A stretch of DNA of 43,598 bases, from NCBI GenBank assembly GCA_964520965.1, contig CAZFPM010000002.1, positions 188 to 43,785 on the forward strand, written 5' to 3'. The translations under genes were made by a program, and so were the position numbers. This document shows, piece after piece, positions 9,947 to 28,080 of this stretch; position 1 is the stretch's first letter; each line of letters begins with the position of its first letter. Source of the stretch: an uncultured Myxococcales bacterium. Its GTDB lineage: Bacteria; Myxococcota_A; Bradymonadia; REDH01. A model generated the notes under the pieces. It was not told the DNA's origin, ran no database searches, and worked only from the letters and a program-made list of their open reading frames with translations.

Positions 9947-11416
9947 CTACAGCCGCGAAGCGGCCAGCTCGGCCAGAAGGCTGCGCTCGCCCTTGGTGAA
10001 GTACACCGCACCGGTCACCGGCGAGTCCTTCAGCCGCTCCGTCACGTAGACGAGCCCGTTGGACGACTGGTCGAGGAAGTGGTTGTCGACCTGGAAGGGA
10101 TCGCCCGAGAGGATCACCTTCGTCCCGTCTGCGGCGCGGGTGATGATCGTCTTCACCTCGTGCGGCGTCAGGTTCTGCGCCTCGTCGATCAACATGAAGG
10201 CGTTCGGGATCGAACGACCGCGTATGGAGTGGATCGCCTGTACCTCGAGCTGCCCGACCGCGAAGAGGTGCTCCCAGGCCTTCTCGGGACGCGAAGCGCC
10301 CTTCGCCATCGACAGACCGTCGTCGGTCGGGATCAGCTGGTCGAGATTGTCGAAGAAGGACAGCATCCAGGGCTGCATCTTCGCTTCGAAGTCGCCCGGC
10401 AGATAGCCGATGTCCTTGCCCATCGGGATGACGGGTTTCGAGAGCAGGATTCGATCGTAGTGGCCGCCGGAGCCCAGACCGGTCACCTGGGCGACCGCAG
10501 CCGCGAGCGCCAGGAAGGTCTTCCCGGTGCCGGCCTTGCCGACCAGCGAAACCAGCCGCACTTCGGGATCCATCAGCAGATCGAGCGCCATGCGCTGCTC
10601 GATGTTGCGAGGCGCGATGCCCGCTGCACGCGAGTAATCCCGCGGAACCGGTCGCAATGCCCCCGACGTACCGTTGAAGCGCAGCACCCGCTCCTTGTCG
10701 CCGTCTCGACAGATGACGAACTCGTTGGGCAGCAGGTCCGCGAGCCCGATGTCTTCGGCGAGGAGCTCGGTGTCGGGCACGTAGGCGGTCTGAACCACGT
10801 TCGGGTCGGCGTCGTCGACATACCGGTAGCCGTGGAACATATGCGTCGGCTGCACCCGGTCCCTGTTGTAGTCCTCTGCTTCCAAACCCTCGAAATCCGC
10901 CAGGATTCTCAGGTTGACATCCTTCGAGAGCAGGACGATTCGTTTGCCGGGCATCGACCGCTGCAGCGACAACGCCGCGCTGAGGATCAACAGATCCATC
11001 TTGCGTACCGTGTCCGACTCGCGCAGCGCCCCCATGCCGTGACCTTCGCCGTTCGCCGTGATCCGGAACGTCGTGTCGAGCTCCGGGTGATGAACGCCGG
11101 CCTCTTCGTGAAGGTGCCCGTACTTCATCAGCGATGAGATGAAGCGCGACGCGGTCCGAGCCGCTGCAGCGACCTCGACCCGTCGGTTGTCCTTCAGGTC
11201 GTCGAGCTCCATCACGACGAAGATCGGGATGACGACCGTCGTACCCCGGAAAGTCGTGAGGCAGTGCGGGTCGTGAACGAGGACGCTCGTGTCGATCACG
11301 TACACGCCGCGCCTTCTTTCTCCCAGGGTCTCTATCTCGGAGTCGCTCTCTGCTTCGGGGGGGGACAGTTCAACGGCCGGATCGATTTCAGCCGGCAGGG
11401 AAGCAGTCGTGTTCAT
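9947..11416 (-). CDS. PIN-PhoH (PhoH2/YlaK-like) protein
   Basis: PIN motifs YVIDTSVL, VVMELD and LLSKDVNLRI; PhoH motifs PRNIEQ, GKAGTGKT, IGYLPG, IRGRS, IDEAQN and GDPFQVD. Confidence 0.93.
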   Translation of the reverse strand: MNTTASLPAEIDPAVELSPPEAESDSEIETLGERRRGVYVIDTSVLVHDPHCLTTFRGTTVVIPIFVVMELDDLKDNRRVEVAAAARTASRFISSLMKYGHLHEEAGVHHPELDTTFRITANGEGHGMGALRESDTVRKMDLLILSAALSLQRSMPGKRIVLLSKDVNLRILADFEGLEAEDYNRDRVQPTHMFHGYRYVDDADPNVVQTAYVPDTELLAEDIGLADLLPNEFVICRDGDKERVLRFNGTSGALRPVPRDYSRAAGIAPRNIEQRMALDLLMDPEVRLVSLVGKAGTGKTFLALAAAVAQVTGLGSGGHYDRILLSKPVIPMGKDIGYLPGDFEAKMQPWMLSFFDNLDQLIPTDDGLSMAKGASRPEKAWEHLFAVGQLEVQAIHSIRGRSIPNAFMLIDEAQNLTPHEVKTIITRAADGTKVILSGDPFQVDNHFLDQSSNGLVYVTERLKDSPVTGAVYFTKGERSLLAELAASRL

Positions 11417-11654
11417 GCGCGCTCCGCTTGGGGGGCCATACACCAAGTATGGGCCCGTCTCGGACTCGCTTCAAGAATCCACCGCAAAACACCGCCTTGG
11501 GCCGCACAGCACCGCACATGTCCCACACGGTCGCACACCGGGGGCCGCGTCGACCACGGTCCGGAACGCAACATCCGCCACGACGAGCCGACCACCCCTT
11601 CCAGCGATGGCGATCAGCGAGCCATTCGCTGCCGTGGATTGGTCGGAGGCCCAG

Positions 11655-14600
11655 ATGTCGCATAGGCCGGATCTCTCGAAGACCGCCAGGAAGGTCAGGT
11701 CGCTCACCAACGCCGTCGCGCTCGTCGACTGGCTGAAGCTGGCGGGCTGGAGCGGCGTGCCGGTGCTGGTCTCCAGGACCGGCCACGGCCGACTCGGCGC
11801 AGCGCTGGATTGGGAAGAGGACACCTGGATCGTCGACCCGACCGCGCCCACCCCGTTGCTCGTCACGACGGCCGACGAGGCGATCGATGGGCGCATGGCT
11901 CGGGTGGCGCGGACCGTCGCCCGAATGTCGCGCGGGCGCGCCGCGATCGTGATTCGCACGAGCACGGCCGGTGCGACCATCGCCGCCTGCACTGGCGAGT
12001 GCTCGGCGTCGACGATGTGGACGAGTACATTCGACCGACTCGATGCTGATGGGGTCGTCGTGTGGTCGTCGTTCGAGGAGACGACCTCGTCGACCGTGGC
12101 GGCCGTTCGCCTGGTGGCCCGCATCGGTCGGCGCGCGCTGGGGCGTCGCTTCTTCCGAGACGTTCGTCGTCACGTCACCGAGCTGACGCATGCCTGGTCG
12201 GGTGTCGAGAGCTCCGCCGACCGGCGTGCTCTCTCGATTACGCTCCTGTGCCGCCTGATGTTCCTCTACTTCGTGCAGCGAAAGGGGTGGCTGGACGGGG
12301 ATCCGGGGTTCATGGCGGCGCTCGTGCTCGATCCCGCCGCCGAGTCGGTCTACGAGGAGCGCCTCCGACCCCTCTTCTTCGACGCGTTGAACAGACCCCC
12401 GGATCGACGGGGATCCGGGCCGCGATATAGGGGGGTGCCGTTTCTCAACGGGGGGCTCTTCGCACCGAGCGAGGCCGAGCAGCGAAACCCGAACGCGACG
12501 CTCGATGACGCCGTCGTGCGCGCGCTCGTCGACGCTGTCCTCGAGCGCTATCGATTCGTGGAGCGGGAAGACATCGATGGTGAGGTCGCTGTCGATCCCG
12601 AGATGCTCGGCTGCGTCTTCGAGCAGCTGATGTGCGACGAACAACGGACCCGGACCGGGGCGTTCTACACGCCCCCGTCATTGGTCCACGACACGGTCGA
12701 CCTGGCCCTGGCCACGTTGATGGAGTGTCGCGTCGGCGCCGAAACCTGGGCCGCTGTCGAACGTCGCGATACGATCGATTCGAGAACCTGCACCGAGGTG
12801 GTGGCCGCGCTGGACGACCTCCGGATCCTCGATCCGGCCGTGGGAACGGGAGCCTTCCTGCTCGGGGCGCTTCAACGATTGGTCGACTGCCGTGCCCACC
12901 TCCAGCCGGGGCTGCCCAGAGCGGAGCTCGCCCGACGCATCGTGGGGAGGAACCTGTACGGGGTCGACATCTCCGCCACCGCGGTGACCCTCTGCGAGCT
13001 GCGGCTGTGGCTTGCGGTGGCGGCCGAAATGTCCGACGGACCCGGCGCGCACGTTCAGCCGCTGCCGAACCTCTCCCACCACGTCCGGCGCGGCAACGTG
13101 TTGACGGGCACCAGTGTCTTCGCCGCGTTCGAGGGGGTCCCGGTGCCGCCGGACATCATGCGGAGACTCGAGCGTGCGACCGAGATGTTCCCGACGGCGG
13201 TCGACCGACGGAAGCGAGAGCTCGAAGAAGCGCTGCGGGTGGCGGAACGCGAGCTCGCCGTCGAGCTGTTGAGCACACTCCTGACGCGCCTCGAGGGCGA
13301 GGATCTCGCGGAGAGGGCGCCGGTTCGCGATCTCTTCGGTGTCGAGGTGACCGCCACCCGGTCCCAGGTCGCTTCGCGGCGCGCCCGTGAAGCCAGGATC
13401 ACCGACGTCCGCCGAGCGCTCGCCGACGCGCGGTCGGGAGATGGCACGCCGACCTTCGACCCACACGTCCACTTCGCGTCGGTGGTGGGTCGTGGCGGCT
13501 TCGACCTCGTGGTCGGCAACCCGCCGTGGGTTCGGCTGGCTGATCTGCCCGGGTCGGAGCGGCGGCGCGTGAGGGGAGCCTACCGTTGGGTGGCCGAGGC
13601 CGGGGGAGGAAGGCCTTTCGGCGCGCAGCCAGACCTGTCCGTGGCGTTCACCGAGCGGGCGGTGCGCTTGACGACGAACGGTGGGGTCGTGGCGTTGGTC
13701 GTTCCGACGAAGCTCTTTACCGCCGGCTACGGCCGCGCGCTTCGGGCCGGGCTGCTTCGAGAGACCGATCTCGTCGCGCTCCGGGACCTGTCCGGGGCGG
13801 GAGTCTCTCTCTTCTCGGCAGACGCCTATCCGGGGACGATCGTCGCGAGAGTCGGCGGAGGAAGAGGGGGGCAAGTCGCTGTAGACAATGGAGGAAGCCG
13901 CTTCGTCGTGCCGACCGGAATGCTCGCGGCGACCCCGCTTCCCGGTGCACCGTGGCCGCTGCTCGGGGCCGAGGAGATGGCCGTGTATCGGCGCCTGACG
14001 GGCTGCGCCCACACCGTAGGGAGCCAATATGAGCTCCGGATGGGCATCAAGACCGGGGCGAACGTCGCGTTCGTCGACCTGGAGCTCGAGGGTCTCCCGA
14101 TCGTACCCGCGATCCGCGGCAAGGATATCCAACCGATGCATGCCGCGCCGACCACGACGCTCTTCCTCGCGCATGACCCGGCAACCGGCGCCGTGTTGCC
14201 AGCCGAATCGCTCGGCGCTGACCTGGCGCGATGGTTGGGCCTTTTCGAAGATACCGTTACGCGTCGCGCGGACCACCGCCCGACGACTGCGCCCTGGGCC
14301 GTCTTCCGCGTTCGGCCCGGCGCACTGGGGCACCGTGTGGCCTGGCGGGACATCAGTCGACAGCTCGTTGCAGCGCCGGTTCCACCGGTCGAAGCCGGTG
14401 GACCGGTTGCGCTCAACTCTGCCTATACCCTTGCAGTGCAGAGCGCGGCCGAATCGCTGCGAGTCGCCGCGTGGCTCTGCGCTCTCCCAGCGCGCTTCGT
14501 CGCCTCGGCACCCGCTGACCGGGCGTTGTCAGGCCACCGCCGGTTCCGAGCGGAAGCCGTGGCGCGCGTTCCGTTTCCCCCGTGTTTACAGGGCGATGGC

Positions 14601-14768
14601 GGCCGTGCCTCACGTGCGTTCGACGAAGCGGCCGCGAATTTCGCCGCTGACGCTCAATCTGTAGAAGCGCAGCGGCGACTCGACACGGCTGCGGCCGCGT
14701 TGCTCGGAATGTCCGACCACGAGCAGACCGTGATGAGGCGGGCGTGCAGCGCACTCGGATGCGCGTGA
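11655..14768 (+). CDS. Eco57I/type IIG-like N6-adenine DNA methyltransferase with a C-terminal target-recognition domain
   Basis: RLMFLYFVQRKGWL, VPFLNGGLF, DPEMLGCVFE, GAFYTPP, DPAVGTGAFL (motif I), LYGVDI and VGNPPW (motif IV); TaqI_C-like GIKTG, RGKDI and WRDIS. GGAGG lies upstream of ATG 11655. Confidence 0.88.
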   Translation: MSHRPDLSKTARKVRSLTNAVALVDWLKLAGWSGVPVLVSRTGHGRLGAALDWEEDTWIVDPTAPTPLLVTTADEAIDGRMARVARTVARMSRGRAAIVIRTSTAGATIAACTGECSASTMWTSTFDRLDADGVVVWSSFEETTSSTVAAVRLVARIGRRALGRRFFRDVRRHVTELTHAWSGVESSADRRALSITLLCRLMFLYFVQRKGWLDGDPGFMAALVLDPAAESVYEERLRPLFFDALNRPPDRRGSGPRYRGVPFLNGGLFAPSEAEQRNPNATLDDAVVRALVDAVLERYRFVEREDIDGEVAVDPEMLGCVFEQLMCDEQRTRTGAFYTPPSLVHDTVDLALATLMECRVGAETWAAVERRDTIDSRTCTEVVAALDDLRILDPAVGTGAFLLGALQRLVDCRAHLQPGLPRAELARRIVGRNLYGVDISATAVTLCELRLWLAVAAEMSDGPGAHVQPLPNLSHHVRRGNVLTGTSVFAAFEGVPVPPDIMRRLERATEMFPTAVDRRKRELEEALRVAERELAVELLSTLLTRLEGEDLAERAPVRDLFGVEVTATRSQVASRRAREARITDVRRALADARSGDGTPTFDPHVHFASVVGRGGFDLVVGNPPWVRLADLPGSERRRVRGAYRWVAEAGGGRPFGAQPDLSVAFTERAVRLTTNGGVVALVVPTKLFTAGYGRALRAGLLRETDLVALRDLSGAGVSLFSADAYPGTIVARVGGGRGGQVAVDNGGSRFVVPTGMLAATPLPGAPWPLLGAEEMAVYRRLTGCAHTVGSQYELRMGIKTGANVAFVDLELEGLPIVPAIRGKDIQPMHAAPTTTLFLAHDPATGAVLPAESLGADLARWLGLFEDTVTRRADHRPTTAPWAVFRVRPGALGHRVAWRDISRQLVAAPVPPVEAGGPVALNSAYTLAVQSAAESLRVAAWLCALPARFVASAPADRALSGHRRFRAEAVARVPFPPCLQGDGGRASRAFDEAAANFAADAQSVEAQRRLDTAAAALLGMSDHEQTVMRRACSALGCA

Positions 14769-16921
14769 CCGCCGGCCCGCTCCGCGTGAGGGACCTGGTC
14801 GCGTGGTGGCATCCCGAAGGACGCGCGCGACGCGCGGCGGCTTCGGGGCCGGACCCAGACCTCGAGCCATTTCAGCAGGTTGGGTGCTGGTTGCTCACGG
14901 AGCGCTTGCGTTCTGGGGGTTGTGCGGTGCTCGCCGATGCACCGGGCCTCGGGAAGTCGCACACCGCGATCGCGGCCGCCCGTGCCGTCTCGGACGCGGG
15001 AGTCGTCGTGGGACCGGCGGTGCTGCGGACCCAGTGGCGGCTCCTGCTCGACGGTCTTGGTCTCGGGTGGCCGTTCGTATCTGACGGTGTGCTCTCGCGG
15101 CGGTCGATCACCGTGGGAACCTCGGACGTCGTGATCGTGGACGAGGCCCATCGGTTCAGAAACCCGGCGACCCGCCGGTACGAACACCTTCGTGAGCTGA
15201 TCGGCTCGAGGCTCGTGCTCTTCGTGTCCGCAACGCCGGTTCAAAACACACGGAACGACCTGATTGGGCTGTTGCGCCTGGCGCTTCCGGACCATGCGAT
15301 CGCAGGATCCACCCCGGACGAATCGAGAGACGCGCTTGGTCGGCTGGACCGGGACGACGAACTCTTCGCCGCAATCGTCGAGACATGGGTGGTGTGTCGA
15401 ACAGCCGCCGAAGCCCGGCGGTGGAACGCTTCGTTCCCGGTTCGTTGGGGGCCGGGCCTTTCGGTGCCCGAACGCTCGAACATCCGGCACACCACGATCG
15501 TTGCGTCGACGGTCCCGAGCGAGGTCGCGGCGGAGGTGGCCGGCGTTGCGGAGTTCGTGTCGGTATTCGCCGAGGAATCCGTCGCATTGTTGCGCACGAC
15601 GTTGTTGCGCCGGCTTGCCTCGTCGCCGGAAGGCGCGAGCGAGACACTGTGGCGCATGGAGAACTTTCTGGAACGGCTGCGAGAAGCCCGGGCTGTCGGC
15701 AGCGGGATCAGCCGAGCCGAATTCCTGGCAGTGTTCGGAGCGGATCCGACCGCGCAACTGGCCCAGCAGGTGCTGCCGTTCTGGTATGCGGGTGACACGG
15801 CGTGCGGCCTCTCGGTGGCAGAGGTGAGCGCCCGTCTCGATGCGGTCAGGCGAGTCCGTGGTCGGGTCTCCGATGCACCGTTGGGGCGCAGCGAAAAGGG
15901 GAACTCACTAGTGGAACTCGTCAGCCGAGATGCACGGCGGATGCTGATCTTCACCGAGTACGGCGCCACGGCCCGGGCGGTGCGGGACACGCTCGGGGAT
16001 CTCGACGTGATCCTGCTGACCGGCGCCGAGGCTGCGCTGTCCGGGGTCGGTCGGGTGTCGCGGGCGACGGCGTTGCGGGTGTTCGCGGGGCAACCTCCGC
16101 GAGGGTTTCGCCCCGGTCGCATCCTGGTGGCGACCCCCGTGGCCTCCGAAGGGCTGGATTTGCCCGGCGTCGACGTCGTGGTGCACTTCGACCTCCCGTG
16201 GAACCCTGCGCGACTCGCTCAGCGGGAGGGGAGGGCCGCGCGCATGGGGGGAGATTGCGCCGTGGAGGTCGTGCGCTTTCGACCGCCGGACGAGGTGGAG
16301 GCCGAGCTTCGGCTCGAAGACACCCTGAGTCGCAAGGAGGGGTTGGCGCGAACGCGACGCTCGCGCACGCCGCCGTCGTCTGCGGCAGAAGCGAGCCGAG
16401 TGCCGCGTCTCGCACGTCGAGCGCCGGGCTTCGTGGCGGGCGAGGGAGTCGTCGTCGTCATCGTCTGGCTGGACACCTGGCGAGCCCGGTTCGCGACCGG
16501 CGTCGGGGTCCGGCGGTTGTCGAATCTCGTGGCGGCGGCCGGGGATCTGGAGGTGGGCGCGTTGACACCGGCGGAGGTGGCGGCCGCGCGGAGCACCCTC
16601 TCTGCCGGGAGCACGTTGGCCGGGACCGCGCCGATGTCGGGTTCATGGTGGCAAGAGGCAATGCTCCGGGCGCGGGTCCGGCCGACGAGCTGTGAGGGGA
16701 TCGACGCCCTGGTCGACGCAGCGTCGCGTCCCCTCGGGAGGGCACGCGCCCTCGGACGACAGCGGTTGATCGACCACGAGACGCGGGTCCGCGGGTGGGA
16801 CGCCGACGAGCTGGCAACAGCGGTGCGGGCGATTCCGGACGGCGAGTGCGACCAGGGTCCGGTGTTGGTGATTCGCCGCTCGGCGCTCGGTCCGGACGGG
16901 CAATGCGTCGACGGACGGTAA
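14759..16921 (+). CDS. SNF2-type superfamily 2 helicase/ATPase
   Basis: LADAPGLGKS, IVDEAHRFRN, SATPVQN, LIFTEY, SEGLDL and DLPWNPARLAQREGRAAR. The start (ATG 14759, or GTG 14765 as a GTGA overlap) overlaps the end of the MTase gene. Confidence 0.88.
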   Translation: MRVTAGPLRVRDLVAWWHPEGRARRAAASGPDPDLEPFQQVGCWLLTERLRSGGCAVLADAPGLGKSHTAIAAARAVSDAGVVVGPAVLRTQWRLLLDGLGLGWPFVSDGVLSRRSITVGTSDVVIVDEAHRFRNPATRRYEHLRELIGSRLVLFVSATPVQNTRNDLIGLLRLALPDHAIAGSTPDESRDALGRLDRDDELFAAIVETWVVCRTAAEARRWNASFPVRWGPGLSVPERSNIRHTTIVASTVPSEVAAEVAGVAEFVSVFAEESVALLRTTLLRRLASSPEGASETLWRMENFLERLREARAVGSGISRAEFLAVFGADPTAQLAQQVLPFWYAGDTACGLSVAEVSARLDAVRRVRGRVSDAPLGRSEKGNSLVELVSRDARRMLIFTEYGATARAVRDTLGDLDVILLTGAEAALSGVGRVSRATALRVFAGQPPRGFRPGRILVATPVASEGLDLPGVDVVVHFDLPWNPARLAQREGRAARMGGDCAVEVVRFRPPDEVEAELRLEDTLSRKEGLARTRRSRTPPSSAAEASRVPRLARRAPGFVAGEGVVVVIVWLDTWRARFATGVGVRRLSNLVAAAGDLEVGALTPAEVAAARSTLSAGSTLAGTAPMSGSWWQEAMLRARVRPTSCEGIDALVDAASRPLGRARALGRQRLIDHETRVRGWDADELATAVRAIPDGECDQGPVLVIRRSALGPDGQCVDGR

Positions 16922-16975
16922 CGCAGTCGGACCCCGATCGATTCGATGAGCCGCGGGCGCAGATGGCGCCTCGCG

Positions 16976-17314
16976 TCAGCGCGCGGCGGGCATCGGCTCC
17001 GGTGGTCCGGCGCACGCGGGCGCATGGCCTCGCGAACATGCGAGGTCGCGCAGCGTGGCTGCCCGATCGACGTCTTTGGGCACGCCCTGAGCGTTCTCGT
17101 CGCCGAAGTAGTAGACGAGGGAGAGCGCGTAACAGCTGCTGGCGACGCCGTCGTCACACTCCGCGGCATATCGGCGCGCGTTCTCCGACGCCTCTGGCGA
17201 CAACGCGCGAAGATGACTGGAGCGGCAGGCGACGAGGGTGGACGCCAGGCATGCGACAAGGACCACGGCGCGGGAGAGAGCAGGCCGCGATGTTGCACGT
17301 GAAACGGCGACCAT
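16976..17314 (-). CDS. Small lipoprotein with a Sel1-like (Cys-paired) repeat
   Basis: Lipobox STLVAC; CDDGVASSCYALSLVYYFG...GVPKDVDRAATLRDLACSRGHAPAC matches the Sel1/Hcp repeat pattern. The start is approximate. Confidence 0.7.
   Translation of the reverse strand: MVAVSRATSRPALSRAVVLVACLASTLVACRSSHLRALSPEASENARRYAAECDDGVASSCYALSLVYYFGDENAQGVPKDVDRAATLRDLACSRGHAPACAGPPEPMPAAR
17291..17306. promoter_or_regulatory. parS: parS-like site (degenerate)
   Basis: TGTTGCACGTGAAACG has 2 mismatches to the canonical TGTTTCACGTGAAACA. Confidence 0.65.
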
Positions 17315-17318
17315 CGGC

Positions 17319-18662
17319 TTAGTACAGGGGTTCGACATCGGTCCACTCCACCCAATCGCCGAGGCGGGGCCGCCCGTCGTGATCACGCAGCCATACGGGG
17401 CGCTGCATGCGCCCAGGACTGGTGATCCGCCGCACGCCCAGGCGTCCGAGCGTGGCGAGGAAGTCGGTGCGTCGGGCGCGCGGGTAGTCCAGCCCTACCG
17501 TCGAGATGGCGCCACGCAGGCGATCGAGCTCCGAGAGCAACGCCGCCTCGTCGTCGTAGGGGACGAGGTGCAGGGTGCGTCCGCCCGGTGAGGCGCGGAA
17601 CCCCGGCTCGCGGTGCACGACGACGGCGGCAGTCTCGGCCCGGAAGACCTGCGCCGTGAACTCGGCCACGCCGAGCTCTTGAAGCAGCGCCGCCGCGGTG
17701 TCCGTCGACAAGCGGCCGCGTGGCAGGGTCTGCTCGACGTGCGGGAAGCCGATGTCGACCAGCGCGCGGGCGACCTCTTCGAGCGTCCAGGGTGCCGCCC
17801 GCGCGACGAAGAGGCAGTGCGGCGACATGCAGCCACGTTGATCGTACACCGCGGCGTCGAGGGCGAAGCCCCGGGCGAGCTCGCCGAGGCGGGCCGGTCC
17901 GCGTTTTCCGTCGTCCGGCCCGATGATCCCGAACGAAACGCGGTGCCCGTAACCAAAGAACCGGGTCGGGAATCGGCAACGGGCCAACAGCGCATTGACC
18001 GTGTCGTCGCCCCCGTAGACCGTCACGACATCCGCCGCGCGGCTGGCGAGGGAGTCCAGCGCGTCGTGGCCGCCGGGCCACGTGAGCACGGCGACTGAGT
18101 TCGCGAGATCCGGAGCGAGCTTGCGAAGGGAGTCGAGGAAGAGTCGAGGAATTGCCGGCTCGTTGGTGGCCGTCTTGATCAACAGCGGGCCACGGGCGAG
18201 CAGAGCCAGGGCGATCGACTCGATGGCGACCGGGGGAACCGTGCTGGCGAGCACCTGGAACACCAGCGCGGGCGGATTCGCCGCGCGGGCGCACGGGAGG
18301 GGGCTCTGCGCCCTCGGCGCCTGGAAGGGTTCGCGTGCGCCGAGCTCGGTCTCCACGAGGGCGACCATGCTGGCTGCCGTCAGGCGACGCAGCAGGTCGG
18401 CGAGGCTCCAACGGACCATCTCTGGGGAGTAACCGGTGGTGGCAGCAGTGGCCGTCGCGGCCTGATCGAGCCACGAGGCGTCTTCGTCGAGCCAAGCGAG
18501 CGTCGCACGCTCCAGGCGGTTGGCGATCTGGGCGGTTGTCAGAGCGGTGAGAGCTGGTCCGGAGGCCCGGAGCTGTCGGATGGTCGACACCAGGAAGTCC
18601 GGTGTCACCGGGCCCGTCGTGTCGCCCGCGGGCGAGAGCTGGCGCAGGGGTTCAGAGGTCAT
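17319..18662 (-). CDS. luxC: LuxC-family acyl-CoA reductase
   Basis: ALDH-like layout (TGYSPEMV, IKTATNEP, VYGGDDTV, GYGHRVSF) and YDQRGCMSPH carrying the catalytic Cys. ATG 18662 overlaps the end of luxE. Confidence 0.85.
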   Translation of the reverse strand: MTSEPLRQLSPAGDTTGPVTPDFLVSTIRQLRASGPALTALTTAQIANRLERATLAWLDEDASWLDQAATATAATTGYSPEMVRWSLADLLRRLTAASMVALVETELGAREPFQAPRAQSPLPCARAANPPALVFQVLASTVPPVAIESIALALLARGPLLIKTATNEPAIPRLFLDSLRKLAPDLANSVAVLTWPGGHDALDSLASRAADVVTVYGGDDTVNALLARCRFPTRFFGYGHRVSFGIIGPDDGKRGPARLGELARGFALDAAVYDQRGCMSPHCLFVARAAPWTLEEVARALVDIGFPHVEQTLPRGRLSTDTAAALLQELGVAEFTAQVFRAETAAVVVHREPGFRASPGGRTLHLVPYDDEAALLSELDRLRGAISTVGLDYPRARRTDFLATLGRLGVRRITSPGRMQRPVWLRDHDGRPRLGDWVEWTDVEPLY

Positions 18663-19731
18663 CGGGCCTGCTCGAGCGGCGGTTGAGATGGGCGAGGACC
18701 TCTTCGGCGGCGAGACCGCAGCCGCGGGGCGTCGCCCCGGCTGCGCGGCCGAGGAGGGTGACGGAGCCGTTTTCGTGGACATGGCCGAGATCGGACGTCT
18801 GCACGGCGACGACGGTGTCGACGTTGGCGAGGTCGATGAAGCGGAGCAGTCCGACATCGCCTGGAGGCAGGGGCTCCGCGGTCTCGGGGTCCACAGCGAT
18901 GACGCGACACCACGGCGGCGCGACGAGGCGCCGGGCGCTGACCGGCTCGGTAGGCTCGGAGTAGAGCTGGCTGGAGAGCTCGGTCATCGAGTACTCGGTG
19001 CGGACCGCCGATGAGGGCAGGCGAAAGGTCGTGGTGGTCCGTTGGTAGAGCGAAGCGGCATCGACGGAAGTTCGACGACCCTTGAAGCCGCCGGTTTCGA
19101 CGATAACGCTGCCTGGGGGCAGGGGGATGGCTTCGGTCACCGCGTCGAGCAGGTTGGCCAACGCATAGGCCGTGGCGAAGAGGACGACGGGTCCGGACGT
19201 GTCGCGGAGCGCGCCGACGACGGTCGGAATGTCGAGGCCATCGACGGGGTCGAGAAAGAAGCGAGGTGGGAGATCGGAGCGGTGCTCGGCGAGGACGCCG
19301 ACCATGTGGGAGAGGGAGGAATCGCGAGCGGCAGCGGGATCGAAGACGAGGGACAAGAACACCGGCTTGGGCACCGTTGCCGGGATGCAGCGGTCGAAAT
19401 GGGCGCGTGCGGAGGCATCGTAGCAGCGGACAGACAGCCGAGCGGATTCTCCGCGGGGTCCCGCAGTTGTGCCGCTGGTGCGGAAGAGCCTGGCCACTTT
19501 CCGCTCGGCGGAGACGAGGCGGGCATGACGGAAGACCTCCGTGGGGACGGCGGGTGTCGTCTCCGGGGTGGCGGTTTCGGGATCGAAGTCGCGCCGCTTC
19601 CAGAAAGCGGCGAGCGGCGGGATGTGATCACGTTGGTAGGTCGCCACGTGCCGCAAGGTCTCGTCGAAGGCCCCCTCGCCGTCGATGAAGCGGAGGACCA
19701 GCTCTTCCACGTCAGCCAGTCGGTGTTTCAC
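18652..19731 (-). CDS. luxE: LuxE-family acyl-protein synthetase
   Basis: FRTSGTT, VETGGFKGR, EYSMTELSSQLY, VQTSDLG and the C-terminal LGRAAGATPRGC with the acylated Cys. Confidence 0.88.
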   Translation of the reverse strand: MKHRLADVEELVLRFIDGEGAFDETLRHVATYQRDHIPPLAAFWKRRDFDPETATPETTPAVPTEVFRHARLVSAERKVARLFRTSGTTAGPRGESARLSVRCYDASARAHFDRCIPATVPKPVFLSLVFDPAAARDSSLSHMVGVLAEHRSDLPPRFFLDPVDGLDIPTVVGALRDTSGPVVLFATAYALANLLDAVTEAIPLPPGSVIVETGGFKGRRTSVDAASLYQRTTTTFRLPSSAVRTEYSMTELSSQLYSEPTEPVSARRLVAPPWCRVIAVDPETAEPLPPGDVGLLRFIDLANVDTVVAVQTSDLGHVHENGSVTLLGRAAGATPRGCGLAAEEVLAHLNRRSSRPDDL

Positions 19732-20674
19732 GTGAAACGTCTCGCGATTGGGGAGAGCGTGCAGCGTCGGCCTGGGCGCGAACGACGACCGCGAGTCCTA
19801 GCAGGAGGAGCGCGCCGCCGCCAACCTCGAACCGGGCGATCGGCTCGCCGAGCACGAAGAACGCGAGGATCGCGGCCCCGACGGGCTCTAGGAGTACGAC
19901 CAACGAGACGATGGCCGCACCGACCCGGCGAAGCGCGAAGAGGAGCGCATTGTGGCCGATCAGCTGCGGGAACACGGCGAGCCCCAAGAACGCCATCCAG
20001 GTCGTCGGGTCGTATCCGCGCAGTGGGTGACCGCCGAGAAGAAGGGCGACGGCCAACACCACCGCGGCCACGGAGTTCGCGCCCGCGGCGTACGCGATCA
20101 GACCCATCTGCTGCCGTGCCCTGCGGCTGACGACCAGGTAGGTTGCCATCAGCCAGGCGCCGACGACAGCCAACGCCAGCCCCGGTAGCGAGACCGCAGT
20201 GTCGTTGCCCGCGCCCGCGTTCGCGCCGATCACCGCCGCCCCGGCGAGGGCGATCGCCACGCCGAGCCAGGCCCGAAAACCGAGGGCCCGTTCGTCTCGC
20301 AGAAAGGGAGCGGCCGCAGCGATCCAGACCGGCGTGGTCGTGACGAGCAGCGTAGAGCTGGCGACCGACGTCAGCTCCAGAGAAGCCATCCACGCCCAGA
20401 AGTGGAACGCGAGCGCCGTTCCACCGATGAGGATCGGTCCGACCGCCAGTCTGCCGGCGCCGCGCGCCCGCGTCGCCATCAGCCAGCCGCCGAGGAGCAG
20501 AGCTGACAGGGCGACGCGGTAGAAGGCGGTGACGACCGCCGGCGCGTCGCTGAGACGGATCAAGACGGCCGCGCTCGACAGGGCGCAGACACCGAGCGCG
20601 AGTGTCAGCGCCGAGAGTCCTGCGGTCGAGCCGGGTTCCGCGGCAGAAGCATGGCCGGGCGATCGAGATGTCAC
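19712..20674 (-). CDS. EamA/DMT family transporter
   Basis: About 10 TM segments; AFYRVALS, SLELTSVASSTLL, FPQLIGH and LLEPVGA. GTG 20674 forms a GTGA overlap with the upstream stop. Confidence 0.9.
   Translation of the reverse strand: MTSRSPGHASAAEPGSTAGLSALTLALGVCALSSAAVLIRLSDAPAVVTAFYRVALSALLLGGWLMATRARGAGRLAVGPILIGGTALAFHFWAWMASLELTSVASSTLLVTTTPVWIAAAAPFLRDERALGFRAWLGVAIALAGAAVIGANAGAGNDTAVSLPGLALAVVGAWLMATYLVVSRRARQQMGLIAYAAGANSVAAVVLAVALLLGGHPLRGYDPTTWMAFLGLAVFPQLIGHNALLFALRRVGAAIVSLVVLLEPVGAAILAFFVLGEPIARFEVGGGALLLLGLAVVVRAQADAARSPQSRDVSRETPTG
19724..19739. promoter_or_regulatory. parS: parS site overlapping the luxE start codon
   Basis: TGTTTCACGTGAAACG has 1 mismatch to the consensus. 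It encodes VSRET at the EamA C-terminus and contains the luxE GTG. Confidence 0.85.
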
Positions 20675-21546
20675 GAGTGGAGTGTCCACCGCTCGAGCCG
20701 GTTGCCTCGCCAGATCCAGGCGCGGGGCGAGACGGCATGCGGCCGGCCCAACCAATCGGCGCTGGCCCGGCTCAGAAGGCGGTCGACCGCGTGGGGCCGA
20801 TCGACCGGAGCGGCGTAGACCCGGTCACGGGTCGGCACAGCCAGCAGGAGATCCGCCCCGCAGACCCCAGCAACCTCTTGCCAGAACTCGGGCAACAGAA
20901 GGCGCGAAGAGTCCAATCCGTCGCCTCCGCGCAGGAAGTAGATCTCGACCCCATCGTGTTCGTCCCACATCACAGCGGTGTCTCGTGACCGGAGCCATAG
21001 GTTGTGTCGACTCCGCTCCAAGAGCAGGCCGAGATCCGCTCCCCAGAGCTCGACGTCGCGCTGCAGAAGCCACTGGCCGGTATGCGGCCCCTCGCGCACG
21101 AACCCCACGGCGAGGTCCGGCTGCAGGAGCAGAGTCGCACGGGCACAATCGCCAACGGCCTCGGCTCGATCGAGGGGCAGCGGCACCGGCAACAGCGTGT
21201 CGAGGCACTCTCGTTCCCAGCGTTCGCTGAGCGGCCGTCGGCGGAGCGCTCGATCGAGCTCCGCGATGACATGGTCCACGCCCAGGCCCGCCCGCCCGAC
21301 GTCGGCGCCGATGACCCGCTTGAGATGCGTGAGCGACGCCACAGCCTGCGCTCGCTCGTGGCAGAGGTACACGACGCCGTCTTCGGCGGCCACGTCGGCG
21401 CCCCGGAATCGGGCCCTCAACGATGCGCATACCAGCGCCTCGATCCCCGACGGCCGCCGCCTCGTTCGAGAGCGGCCGAAGACGACCACGCCCAAGACGA
21501 CACAGATGCCGCCCGCGAGCAGGGCGATGCCGGTCAGCCAATCCAT
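20671..21546 (-). CDS. Membrane-anchored DUF1444/YtpQ-like protein
   Basis: N-terminal TM helix; GDGLDSSRLLL and LLLAVPTRDR resemble DUF1444 conserved blocks. Confidence 0.6.
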   Translation of the reverse strand: MDWLTGIALLAGGICVVLGVVVFGRSRTRRRPSGIEALVCASLRARFRGADVAAEDGVVYLCHERAQAVASLTHLKRVIGADVGRAGLGVDHVIAELDRALRRRPLSERWERECLDTLLPVPLPLDRAEAVGDCARATLLLQPDLAVGFVREGPHTGQWLLQRDVELWGADLGLLLERSRHNLWLRSRDTAVMWDEHDGVEIYFLRGGDGLDSSRLLLPEFWQEVAGVCGADLLLAVPTRDRVYAAPVDRPHAVDRLLSRASADWLGRPHAVSPRAWIWRGNRLERWTLHS

Positions 21547-21570
21547 TCGGCCACAGGATAAAGGCGCGCG

Positions 21571-21586
21571 TGTTTCACGTGAAACA
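21571..21586. promoter_or_regulatory. parS: parS site (perfect palindrome)
   Basis: TGTTTCACGTGAAACA is an exact match to the canonical ParB/Spo0J site. It lies 24 bp upstream of the DUF1444-like ATG. Confidence 0.93.
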
Positions 21587-22052
21587 ACGACCCGGTCGGG
21601 TCCGCACACCCCCCACTCTAGCCGGCATCCCTCCCAGGATCACCTGGCGATCCACACCAGGCAGGGCGCGAACGAGGCGCATCGGTCCGACCAACACCGC
21701 CTCACGGCGGGCCCACGCAAGAATCCTGCCGACTTCGCTCCCAGCGCCCCCGGACCCACCGCTTGGTACGAGAAAAACCACGATCCCGCAATTCCCCTTA
21801 GATTCTCGCCAGTTGCGCGCCCGACACCGCGCGAGCCACCAAAAGGCACCAAAAACCAGGACGTTACAAGGCGCCCCCAGATCGATCAGATCGCGCGGAT
21901 CGCAGATCCAAGAGGCGCCGTCACCGTGAACGCCTGCCGGGCGAGAGATCGCGCCTCAGCGCGCCTCACGGCGTGTCGTTCGACGCCCCGGCCGGCCATC
22001 GCGCGGCCGGGGCGGCGAATCCGATCGACGGCCCGCATCGGCCGCCAGAGGC

Positions 22053-22484
22053 TCAGAACGGAATCTCGTCGTCTGAGAACGACGTCTCGGCAGGCGCGTC
22101 GGTATCCGAGGGCGGCGGCGGGAAGTCGGAACCACGTCCGGCCCCGGCCTCGCGACCGCCCACGAACACCACGTCGCGGGCGACGATCTCCGTCGTCCAC
22201 CGCTTGTTGCCCTCCTTGTCCTGCCACTCCCGCGTCTGGATCCGGCCCTCGACGTAGACCATGCGCCCCTTCTGGAGGAAGCGCGCCGAGTTCTCACCCT
22301 GGCGCCCCCACACGATGACGCGGTGCCACTCCGTCCGCTCCTGCTGCTCACCGCTCTTGTCCTGCCAGCGCTCGTTCGTTGCGACGCGGAACTCGCAGAC
22401 CGCCTGGCCGCTCGTCGTGTGCCGCAGCTCCGGGTCGGCGCCGAGATTGCCGAGAATGATCACTTTGTTGACCGAACTTGCCAC
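22053..22484 (-). CDS. ssb: Single-stranded DNA-binding protein
   Basis: [36 protein letters not shown] and acidic tail DDEIPF; RBS AGGAG precedes GTG 22484. Confidence 0.97.
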
Positions 22485-23112: not shown

Positions 23113-24075
23113 TTACCCGAGCTTCTCGGTCAGTTCCGGAACGACGTTGAAGGCATCAGCGACGAGACCGTAGTCGGCCACTTGGAAGATCGGCGCTTCG
23201 GGATCCTTGTTGATCGCGACGATGGTCTTCGAGCCCTTCATGCCGGCCAGGTGCTGGATGGCGCCCGAGATGGCGACGGCAAAGTAGAGGTTCGGCGCGA
23301 CGATCTTTCCGGTCTGGCCGATCTGCCAGTCGTTCGGCGCGTAGCCGGAGTCGACGGCGGCACGGGACGCACCGAGCGCGGCGCCGAGCTGATCGGCGAA
23401 CACCTCGAGCATGTGGAAGCCGTCGGCGGACTTCAATCCGCGGCCGCCGGCGACGACGACATCGGCCTCCGTGAGGTCCGGTCGATCGGACTTCACGAGG
23501 TGGAACGCCACGAACTCCGCACCTTCGGCGGCTGTCACGCCGCCGGACCGCTTGTCGACCGAACCGCCGACACCGCCAGCGACCGGGTCGAACGCAGTCT
23601 GGCGCACGGTGACGCACGTGACGTCGGCGTCGCTGGCGACGCATTCGATGAGGTTGCCGGACAGCACCGGCCGCTTGTAGGCGATGCCTCCCTCGTCGTC
23701 GTCGTCGTAGACCGCGATCACGTCGCTGACCATGCCTCCGTCGACGAGCGCGGCTGCGCGGGGGAGGAAGTCCTTGCCGGTGGTGGTTGCGGCGGTGGCG
23801 ATGATCTCGGCGTCGAGCTCGCCGGCAACGGCGGCGACGGCCGGTGCGTACGACTCAGCGAGGTAGTTCGCGAACGACGGATCGTCGATGTAGACGACCT
23901 TGCCGACGTGGCCGGCGAGCTCTGTAGCGACGTCATCGACGCCGCTTCCGAGAACGAGGCCAACGACCTCACCTTCTTCGATCTCGGCCGCTTGATTGGC
24001 AAACCCGAGAGCAGAGAGGGTCGCGCCCTTCAACTTGCCTTCGAGGTGCTCGGCGACAACTAGAATGGTGGTCAT
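23113..24075 (-). CDS. etfA: Electron transfer flavoprotein alpha subunit
   Basis: [42 protein letters not shown] and [11 protein letters not shown]. Confidence 0.97.
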
Positions 24076-24141: not shown

Positions 24142-24888
24142 CTAGAGGACCTTGGCTTCGTTCTTGAGCTTGTCGATGAGCTCGTCGACGTCGGCGACGA
24201 GCACGCCGGCCGCGCGCTCCGGCGGGAGCTCGTAGCCGATGGTGCGCGTCTGGCGCTCGACATCGGCGAGGTCCGCGCCGTCGATCACGTCGAGGGGCTT
24301 CCGCTTCGCCTTCATGATTCCCGGCAGCGACGCGTATCGCGGCTCGTTGAGCCGAAGGTCGGCGGTGACAATGGCCGGGAGCTTCACCTTCACGTCGGCC
24401 GTGCCGCCATCGACCTCGCGACCGACCAACGCCCAGCCGTCCTCGACGGCGAGGCTGTGGGCGAAGGTGCCCTGGGGCATTCCGGCGATGGCGCCGAGCA
24501 TCTGCCCGACCTGGTTGTTCTCGGAGTCGACAGAGAGCTTGCCCATCAGGACGAGCCCGGGCTTCTCCTTCTCGACCACGGCGGCCAGAAGACGCGCGAC
24601 GGCGAGGGTGTCGAGGTCGTCGCTGTCGGCGCTGACCAGGATGCCGCGGTCCGCCCCCATCGCGAGCGCCTGCCGGATCTCCTTCTGCGCCGCCTCGGAG
24701 CCGACGCTGACCACGACGATCTCGTCGGCTTTTCCTGCCTCTTTGAGCCGAATGGCCTCTTCGACCGCGTATTCGTCGAAGGGGTTGAGAACGTAATCGA
24801 CGTTGCCGGTGTCCAGCCGTCCGTCGGCGCCCAGCTTGACCTTCATGTCGGGATCGATGGCCCGCTTCACCGTTACCAGAACCTTCAT
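24142..24888 (-). CDS. etfB: Electron transfer flavoprotein beta subunit
   Basis: MKVLVTVKR, NPFDEYAVEEA, ALAMGADRG and LRLNEPRYASLPGIMKAK; RBS AAGGAG is 6 nt before ATG 24888. Confidence 0.97.
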   Translation of the reverse strand: MKVLVTVKRAIDPDMKVKLGADGRLDTGNVDYVLNPFDEYAVEEAIRLKEAGKADEIVVVSVGSEAAQKEIRQALAMGADRGILVSADSDDLDTLAVARLLAAVVEKEKPGLVLMGKLSVDSENNQVGQMLGAIAGMPQGTFAHSLAVEDGWALVGREVDGGTADVKVKLPAIVTADLRLNEPRYASLPGIMKAKRKPLDVIDGADLADVERQTRTIGYELPPERAAGVLVADVDELIDKLKNEAKVL

Positions 24889-24937
24889 TCTCATCTCCTT
24901 TTCGGCGGTCACCGTCTCCGGCGACCCGGACGCGCGC

Positions 24938-25675: not shown

Positions 25676-26761
25676 TCACACGCCCCGATCGGCTGGCGGT
25701 TGCGCTCTTCGCGAAGCCAGGGCGTCGGCCAGGACCAGCGCCGTCATCGCCTCGACGATCGGCACTGCTCTCGGAAGCACGCACGGGTCGTGTCGGCCAC
25801 GCGCCGTCACCGTCGTCTCCTCGCCGTCGCGCGTGACCGTCCGCTGCGGCCGGAAGATGGTGGCGACCGGCTTGAAGGCGACCCGGAACGCGATCACTTC
25901 GCCGTTGGTGATGCCGCCCTGTACCCCGCCGGAGTGGTTGGACGACGTCCGGACCCGCTCGTTCCGCATCTCGAACGGATCGTTGTGCGCGGAGCCAGGC
26001 ATCCGCGTGCCCGCGAAACCGCTCCCGATCTCGAACCCGCGGGCGGCGGGCAACGACACCATCGCCGCGGCGAGCTCGGCATCGATCTTGGCGAATACGG
26101 GATCACCCAGACCGGCCGGAAGACCTCGGACGACGCAACGAACGCAACCGCCGACGGAGTCCTTGTCGTTCCGAACGGCGGCGATGCGCGCCTGCATCTC
26201 GTCCGCGGCCTGCCCGTCCGGACACCGGACATCATTGGCATCGACATCGTCGCGCGTGACCGACTCCGGGTCGACCGAGGCGCCGATGTCCGCGACGTCA
26301 CTCACCCACGCCACGATCTCGACCGACGTCGGTAGGGTCAGGGCAGCGACGGCCCCGGCGGCGACCCGCGCTGCGGTCTCCCGCGCGCTCGCTCTGCCCC
26401 CGCCTCGCCAATCGCGTTCACCGTAGCGCGCCTCGTAGGTGAAGTCGGCGTGCGATGGTCGATAGAGGTGCTTCAGATCCTCGTATTTCGACGAGTCGGC
26501 ATCGGCGTTGTCGATGACGAGGGAGATCGGTGTTCCGGTGGTGTGCCCCTCGAAGACTCCCGAGAGGATGCGGACGCGATCCGGCTCCTTTCGCGGCGTC
26601 ACGAGCGCGCTCTGGCCCGGTCGCCGACGATCGAGGGCAGGTTGGATCGCCGCGGCATCGAGTGGAACGCCGGGGGGACACCCGTCGACGACGGCGCCGA
26701 TGGCCGGGCCGTGAGACTCGCCCCAGGTCGTCACGCGGAAGAACCGCCCGAAGGTATTCAT
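25676..26761 (-). CDS. aroC: Chorismate synthase
   Basis: [46 protein letters not shown] and GRHDPC; ATGA overlap with the pyrC stop. Confidence 0.97.
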
Positions 26762-28080
26762 GCCCAATACCCGCCCCGCGAGTGGTCGTAGATGGCCTCG
26801 TGCCCACGGACGTCGTCGTCGATCTTCCCGTCGCGGAACACCTCCCGTCCCATGACCCAGGTGCGAACGGGCCACCCGGTCAGGGAGATCCCGTGCCAGG
26901 GGCTCCACCGACACCGGGTCAGCTGGTCCTCGTCTCGGATCGTCCGAGAGAGGTTGAGGTCGACGAGAACGAGATCGGCATCGTATCCGGCGGTGATTCG
27001 GCCCTTTCCGACGATGTCCCAGACCCGGGCAGGGGCGTCGCACATCCACGAGACGACGTGGTCGAGCGAACAACGGCCGCGAGCGACCTGGTCGAGCATC
27101 AATGCCAGCGAGTTCTCGACGGCCGGCACCCCCGACGGCGATTGCGGATAGGGTCGAGCCTTCTCCTCGAGGGTGTGTGGCGCGTGATCCGTGGCGACGA
27201 CCTGGACGTCTCCGTCGACGAGCGCCGCCCAGAGAGCCTCGCGGTCGGCACGCGACTTGAGCGAGGGGTTCATCTGGATGCGAGTTCCCAGTCGGTCGTA
27301 ATCGTCGACGTCGAAGAAGAGGTGGTGCGGACAGACCTCGGCCGTGATCAGGCCGCGAGCGTCGTTCACCAGCTCGATCTCCGCCGCCGTCGACATGTGC
27401 AACACGTGAAAGCGGTGTTGATGACGAGTGGCGAGGTCGATCGCGCGCCGGGTCGCCACCACAGCGGCTTCCTCGTCGCGGATCCGGGAGTGATCGTGGA
27501 TGCTGGTGGTGGGGCCGATCCGCGCGGCGTTGCGACGGAGGGTCGATTCGTCTTCGCAATGCGCGGTGATCGGCAGGGTCGTCTCGGCGAAGATGCGCTC
27601 GAGGGCATCCTGGTCGTCGACGAGCAGGTTTCCGGTGCTCGAGCCGATGAAGATCTTGATCCCAGGCGTGCGGTGGGCGAGCGCCAGCTCGCCGACGTTG
27701 TCGATAGTGGCGCCGATGTAGAACCCGTAGTTGACGACGGACTTGCGGGCGGCGAGCGCGAGCTTGGCCTCGAGTCGGGCCTGGGTGGTGGTGCTCGGCC
27801 GGGTGTTCGGCATCTCGAGGAACGTCGTGACCCCGCCGGCGGCGCACGCGCGAGACGCCGAGAACAGGTCTTCCTTGTAGGTGACGCCGGGGTCACGGAA
27901 GTGGACCTGGTCGTCGATGACGCCAGGCATGAGGTGCAGTCCATCGGCCTCGACCAGCTCGTCACACGCGGTCGTGGCGGCGGCGTCGACATCGACGATC
28001 GAATGTCCCTCGAACAGGACGTTGGATCGACGGCACCCGTCGGGAAGGGCGACGGTGGCACCTCTAACGAGCATCCTCAT
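26758..28080 (-). CDS. pyrC: Dihydroorotase (amidohydrolase family, DDQVH variant)
   Basis: [50 protein letters not shown] and ATDHAPH. Confidence 0.88.

Follow-up and report, generated by a model that had tools for sequence, protein, structure and literature searches.

Predicted parS centromere within a conserved luxE-luxC operon, apart from parAB, in an uncultured Myxococcota lineage

Introduction

The 16-bp consensus that Lin and Grossman are said to have described in 1998 for the Spo0J/parS system of Bacillus subtilis reads TGTTNCACGTGAAACA; parS tolerates mismatches at position 5 and the outer positions. Here, we report on a 43,598-nucleotide window (G000:C2:188-43785) from the draft assembly of an uncultured Myxococcota bacterium (6,383,829 bases in 462 contigs, 68.6% G+C), in which three such palindromes, designated parS-1 to parS-3, lie within a compact DUF1444-EamA-luxE-luxC-Sel1 operon and probably serve as chromosomal parS sites, forming a predicted centromere held at gene junctions through coding tolerance. 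The window, by which we mean this whole stretch, resembles the B. subtilis system in its palindrome, in having few sites, probably in the origin region, and in the location of some of them inside coding sequence. Unlike in B. subtilis, its sites are neither in nor beside parB, all of them fall in one operon within 4.3 kb, and one supplies a conserved candidate start codon.

Passages of PMC7022226 and PMC7333895 describe ParAB-parS systems as usually encoded close to oriC. Within the same phylum as our lineage, Myxococcus xanthus carries 24 parS sites directly upstream of parAB, approximately 30 kb from ori, as set out in a passage of PMC3778016, whereas the window has three sites at a distance of at least about 26 kb from parAB. 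Three parS sites are likewise present on chromosome I of Vibrio cholerae (ParB1/parS1), for which passages of PMC7022226 give a spreading zone of ~16 kb with few local genes responding; however, the organism and gene context are unrelated, and parS over start codons goes unreported in those passages. The closest precedent for a regulatory role comes from parS3 and parS4 of Pseudomonas aeruginosa, which are also chromosomal sites next to gene starts and at which, according to PMC5521831, repression of adjacent genes was shown experimentally and was stronger with ParB excess. In contrast, repression in the present operon would be a prediction, and its promoter was not located. The predicted system is distinct from usual ParABS arrangements in its three sites, its lack of linkage to parAB, its confinement to one conserved operon and the provision of candidate start and stop codons by the parS core.

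Three parS sites and a single ParAB pair

Scanning of the window for TGTTTCACGTGAAACA at up to three mismatches returned three matches (Table 1), against a shuffle mean of 0.04 (0 of 100 shuffles reached three matches), in agreement with the initial annotation, which had found no comparable match elsewhere in the window. The genome-wide scan proposed at that stage was carried out at up to two mismatches and yielded no further match in the draft, for which base composition predicts 0.19; all three of the genome's matches (3/3) thus fall inside 4.3 kb. Three 3-mismatch matches on other contigs are regarded as noise, since 3.4 are expected by chance. Among more decayed copies, the 16-23 kb part of the window held none beyond one 5-mismatch match.

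The perfect site, parS-1, ends 24 nt before the ATG (21546) of the DUF1444-like gene that opens the operon. The luxE frame has its earliest possible start at the central GTG of parS-2 (19731-19729, minus strand), the open frame offering no in-frame start further upstream, and the same 16-mer encodes V-S-R-E-T within the final codons of EamA. The third site starts 13 nt past the luxC stop; in a Sel1-like lipoprotein gene it makes up codons 3-8 (A-V-S-R-A-T). All three match the 16-bp inverted repeat tGTTNCACGTGAAACa. As parS-2 and parS-3 deviate only at position 5 and outer positions, where substitutions are tolerated, the 14-base core GTTNCACGTGAAAC is unbroken in each.

The initial annotation had already placed a perfect copy 24 nt ahead of the operon and a 1-mismatch copy over the luxE start, and both placements held. 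Its third claim, of a 2-mismatch copy just after the luxC stop and at the 5' end of a Sel1 gene, was right as to position, but the gene that it called there was not: the Sel1-like gene occupies the frame given in Table 1 rather than the open reading frame (ORF) 16219-17355, which runs antisense to SNF2. Similarly, the EamA gene was reassigned from ORF 19728-20738 and the luxC start was corrected to the ATG at 18662.

A canonical ParB is encoded elsewhere in the genome. The only ParB_N match adjoins a ParA gene on contig C18, scores 185.5 bits against TIGR00180 (cut-off 58.45) and shows the LGRGL and GERRLRA motifs in its translation. Among solved structures it is closest to ParB/Spo0J chains (E 4e-52), the best match being 7bnk, a 'ParB family protein' chain from M. 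xanthus. It is from this combination of a unique, near-perfect parS cluster and a single canonical ParAB pair that the cluster is read as the chromosomal centromere. The identification made in the initial annotation is thereby supported, both by this uniqueness and by the family conservation and the position of the cluster in a complete relative described below.

Conservation across the family and beyond

Loci of relatives were retrieved by a LuxE alignment scan of contigs, a single-protein LuxC scan having given no relative. Sites with at most one mismatch were present in 10 of the 12 genomes of the same family, and the two genomes without them are 86% and 71% complete. In every parS-positive genome (10/10), the sites lie in an ETF-SSB-(DUF1444)-(EamA)-LuxE-LuxC-(Sel1)-SNF2-methylase neighbourhood, which is syntenic in at least five genera with proteins 40-60% identical to those of the window; SSB was found at 9 of 11 family loci.

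Four genera retain the site at the luxE start, with an invariant 14-base core in G000, G001, G003, G006, G009, G010 and both G011 contigs. Around it, the flanking bases vary freely, as do LuxE residues 4-8, which points to selection at the DNA level. In each of these genomes, LuxE can be read in frame from the central GTG, which precedes the first conserved block and itself follows a purine-rich stretch by 8-11 nt; this GTG is the best candidate for the luxE start codon. Conservation at the same junctions, which the initial annotation had raised, is seen for the luxE start; site positions otherwise turn over between genera.

In addition, 80 LuxE loci across Myxococcota and beyond were surveyed for parS at up to two mismatches within ~10 kb. 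Sites occurred at 13 of the 80, of which ten belong to the same family and the others are L169 and L194 (three sites each) and L185 (a single 2-mismatch site). Linkage of parS to LuxE is accordingly lineage-specific rather than a general property of LuxE. L169 and L194 are Myxococcota-like contigs of metagenome-assembled genomes (62% and 50% G+C) in which three parS sites spread over 6-8 kb enclose a LuxE homologue of ~38% identity, and, as they share the arrangement, the luxE-centromere neighbourhood may predate the family. Neither parS nor luxE was found at the ETF-based loci of other Myxococcota and Proteobacteria (L043-L045, L074, L082, L112). Family f2 (G027, G024) has the classical layout, with a parS cluster ~1 kb from parB.

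Two further arrangements of parS-like sequence were observed. In genus g4, the luxE-luxC spacer (L034:10017-10301, L040:2697-3023, L041:783-1046) contains three to five degenerate parS-like repeats with one or two mismatches (e.g. TGTTCCACGTGACACA), spaced 42-126 nt apart and flanked by perfect sites at the luxE start and inside luxC. In G004 (L035:10049-10114), two perfect sites 50 nt apart lie just past the luxC stop, before the convergent SNF2 gene.

Placement at gene junctions

Sequence no more than 30 nt from a start codon makes up only ~7% of the operon, yet all three sites are located there or nearly so. The reading frames of the palindrome, identical on both strands, offer an explanation. 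One frame (TGT TTC ACG TGA) is closed by a stop, the other two are open (V-S-R-E-T and F-H-V-K-(H/Q)), and the core CAC-GTG-A offers both a GTG start and a GTGA stop/start overlap. Consequently, the 16-mer is cheapest in spacers, in first or last codons or in a stop/start overlap. Placement at junctions is best explained by this coding tolerance, and the alternative mentioned in the initial annotation, that junctions are simply where parS is tolerated, is thus the one that fits best. In tightly packed coding DNA, parS would persist at junctions since a fixed 16-mer costs little there.

The central GTG is in frame at the LuxE N-terminus in five of the eight family genomes analysed. In G008, it is in frame at the N-termini of DUF1444 (M-K-H followed by a membrane helix), EamA and LuxC; moreover, LuxE of this genome ends (...ERAGST) at a TGA within parS, the GTG that starts LuxC lies one base before it, and the palindrome itself is the GTGA coupling joint. 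In G003 and G010, a parS falls among codons 1-17 of LuxC, with a possible LuxC start there. Across the family, parS therefore supplies candidate starts for four genes (luxE, luxC, EamA and DUF1444). No publication on parS serving as a start codon was found among titles and abstracts, and none was found on the parS of this lineage or on Bradymonadales ParB.

The same coincidence with start codons could be given a regulatory meaning, as the initial annotation did. ParB bound at the 5' end of the operon and at its internal starts might repress or gate transcription, or an mRNA hairpin might gate translation, such that the output of DUF1444-EamA-luxE-luxC-Sel1 follows the replication or segregation state. 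The recurrence of parS at the start codons of four different genes would suit this proposal, as would the proximity of the leading site to the first start codon, although the spacing, at 24 nt in G000, 5 nt before a candidate ATG in G001 and 0 nt in G008, varies in a manner that favours coding logic over operator logic. The RNA around parS-1, together with the G+C-rich hairpin directly upstream of it, folds better than shuffles (z -2.4), but the RNAs at parS-2 and parS-3 fold no better than theirs, which again favours coding logic. As precedents, P. aeruginosa promoters next to parS3 and parS4 are repressed by ParB (PMC5521831), and according to passages of PMC7022226 ParB of V. cholerae affects a few genes near parS. 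Against the proposal, passages of that review describe chromosomal ParB effects on local genes as mostly mild.

Coding logic is further preferred over operator logic because the internal sites lie in a translationally coupled operon (4- and 11-nt overlaps), where promoters are unexpected, and because no sigma-70-like promoter was found between 16.8 and 22.3 kb, so that no overlap of operator and promoter is shown. The exact coincidence of parS with GTG and TGA is in addition a relation at the RNA or coding level, which DNA-bound ParB does not need, and the turnover of site positions between genera also speaks against a regulatory function. Regulatory coupling by ParB on the operon is therefore disfavoured and we consider it unlikely; a regulatory side-effect on these genes may nonetheless exist. 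A more far-reaching version, to which we attach little credence, holds that the overlap of centromere and translation signals was selected and not merely tolerated, with ParB clamps or an mRNA hairpin making production of the LuxE/LuxC fatty-aldehyde-type pathway and the transporter depend on how far the origin has been replicated and segregated, in a lineage that also separated its centromere from parAB.

Chromosomal position

Several observations weigh against a chromosomal centromere kept at junctions by coding tolerance. In departure from the usual parS-parAB linkage, parAB lies on C18 and dnaA on C235 (9.2 kb), away from the parS contig C2, and the mapping against both genes suggested in the initial annotation accordingly found no linkage. 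Contig C2 (82 kb) contains neither a skew switch nor a DnaA box at up to one mismatch. By hand tally, 7 of 41 family sites (up to two mismatches) lie inside gene bodies, in counts that include five closely related genomes of one genus and are not independent; they include sites in LuxC (G003, G010, G012), LuxE and LuxC (G006), SNF2 (G001) and the methylase (G007), and junctions are thus preferred rather than obligatory. Finally, tolerance leaves unexplained the retention of the cluster in one operon through the turnover of its sites.

Separation of parS from parAB recurs in the family genomes checked. The 43.5-kb C18 has no parS, contig arithmetic places parB at least about 26 kb from parS in G000, and the two were on different contigs in all eight family genomes checked (8/8). 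The relaxed DnaA pattern TTWTNCACA had no match on C2 and none around parS in G020, a complete genome from a different family of the class, with a single chromosome of 5,045,683 bases.

In G020, the parS cluster lies 15-32 kb from the cumulative GC-skew minimum and the luxE-luxC homologues lie beside that minimum, whereas dnaA is ~0.48 Mb from the skew origin and the only parAB is near the skew terminus (sign change at 1.87-2.10 Mb) (Table 1). No DnaA-box cluster was detected beside parS or the skew minimum of this genome, and synteny between C18 and G020 around parAB was limited to parA-parB. As the G020 layout shows, the uncoupling of parAB from parS reaches beyond the family within the class; that the centromere of the window's family is origin-proximal is supported by analogy only. 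Trios of DnaA-box-like 9-mers (TTTTCCACA type, one mismatch, within ~250 nt) were observed at G000:C314:1147-1252 and G020:C1:4,412,150-4,412,391, the only such clusters found, and may be origin or DnaA-regulatory sites.

The lack of linkage between parS and either parAB or dnaA, and a neighbourhood of ssb, an SNF2 helicase and an Eco57I/PglX-like methyltransferase, gene types common on mobile elements, might instead be expected if the cluster were the partition site of a secondary replicon or an integrated element (plasmid, chromid or island). This explanation is very improbable given the single ParB_N gene in the genome, the ETF and chorismate synthase genes that share the window, the synteny of the neighbourhood across genera at 40-60% protein identity, the even G+C content of the whole window, and the G020 cluster, which is located at the skew minimum of a single 5.05-Mb chromosome. 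Readings of the palindromes as chance matches, or as operators that serve some unrelated regulator binding CACGTG, are barely credible: CACGTG alone is common (18 occurrences in the window), but full 16-mers at 0, 1 and 2 mismatches exceed by far the genome-wide expectation, the core is kept across genera amid diverged flanks, the genome encodes a canonical ParB, and the same motif clusters near parB in family f2.

Gene map of the operon and its surroundings

Genes were assigned from third-position G+C, translations and protein family searches (Table 1). The operon is tightly packed. The GTG start of EamA overlaps the DUF1444 stop as GTGA (4 nt), and the first 11 nt of luxC, from its ATG, are shared with luxE. 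The operon promoter presumably lies in the spacer between ssb and parS-1. The terminal lipoprotein has one weak Sel1-like repeat, below the Pfam cut-off (17 against 30.7 bits). No Rfam family was matched in a search of the window.

Table 1. Features of the window (G000) and reference positions on the complete G020 chromosome
Feature	Position	Strand	Remarks
parS-1	21571..21586	.	perfect TGTTTCACGTGAAACA, 0 mismatches
parS-2	19724..19739	.	1 mismatch, outer position
parS-3	17291..17306	.	2 mismatches, position 5 and outer position
G+C-rich hairpin GACCCGACCGGGTC	21589-21602	-	directly upstream of parS-1
ETF beta	24142-24912	-	
ETF alpha	23113-24075	-	
ssb	22053..22484	-	143 aa; conserved beside the parS-bearing operon within the family
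Spacer, ssb to parS-1	21587..22052	-	466 nt; ends at parS-1
Terminator-like hairpin	21877-21858	-	after ssb, inside the spacer
DUF1444-like membrane-anchored protein	20671..21546	-	291 aa; first gene of the operon; Pfam DUF1444 26.5 bits (cut-off 23.8)
EamA-family transporter	19712..20674	-	320 aa; Pfam EamA 93 bits
LuxE-like acyl-protein synthetase	18652..19731	-	359 aa
LuxC-like acyl-CoA reductase	17319..18662	-	447 aa; Pfam LuxC 196 bits
Small Sel1-like lipoprotein	16976..17314	-	112 aa; last gene of the operon; signal peptide ending LVAC
SNF2 helicase	14744-16921	+	convergent with the operon
Large Eco57I/PglX-like methyltransferase	11289-14768	+	1159-aa ORF; convergent with the operon
G020 dnaA	491		
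G020 parB	2,247,259		2.247 Mb; only parAB of the genome
G020 LuxE-LuxC homologues	4.5275-4.5298 Mb		
G020 parS sites	4,545,119; 4,554,572; 4,562,307		cluster end 4,562,322
G020 GC skew positive	0.10-1.87 Mb		
G020 GC skew negative	2.10-4.51 Mb		
G020 cumulative GC-skew minimum	about 4.53 Mb		

The methyltransferase and SNF2 pair (11289-16921) adjoins the centromere operon in several genera (also at L033, L035, L037 and L038), and its helicase has a weak DISARM DrmD-like match, far under the cut-off; defence-type gene pairs rarely keep so stable a synteny. Elsewhere in the window, a 723-aa ORF (25676-27847, minus strand) has its chorismate synthase domain only at residues 370-710, and the long stretch N-terminal to the domain probably reflects spurious open frames of high-G+C DNA.

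Implications for the lineage

What the window presents is an ordinary ParABS centromere in an unusual position, for which we infer ParB binding and spreading, proximity to the origin in G000, and placement by tolerance rather than regulation. The single ParB would load at the three parS sites as a CTP-dependent clamp and would spread across the neighbouring kilobases, and the region would then be handed to ParA, and probably also to SMC, for segregation. The centromere would thus sit apart from parAB, embedded in its compact operon, and the current view of the ParABS mechanism is unchanged.

With this, the predicted centromere of an uncultured Myxococcota lineage is located, and the luxE-luxC locus becomes a marker for finding the centromere in related, fragmentary genomes. 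The layout shows that parS is separable from parAB and, in the complete relative G020, from dnaA, a caution that parAB or dnaA may be a poor proxy for the position of the centromere or origin. It also provides a sequence-level reason, namely that the palindrome contains a GTG start and a TGA stop and leaves two frames open, for the occurrence of parS at gene boundaries in gene-dense DNA. Ultimately, this reading-frame logic bears on the question, raised in a passage of PMC7333895, of what drives the placement and clustering of parS.

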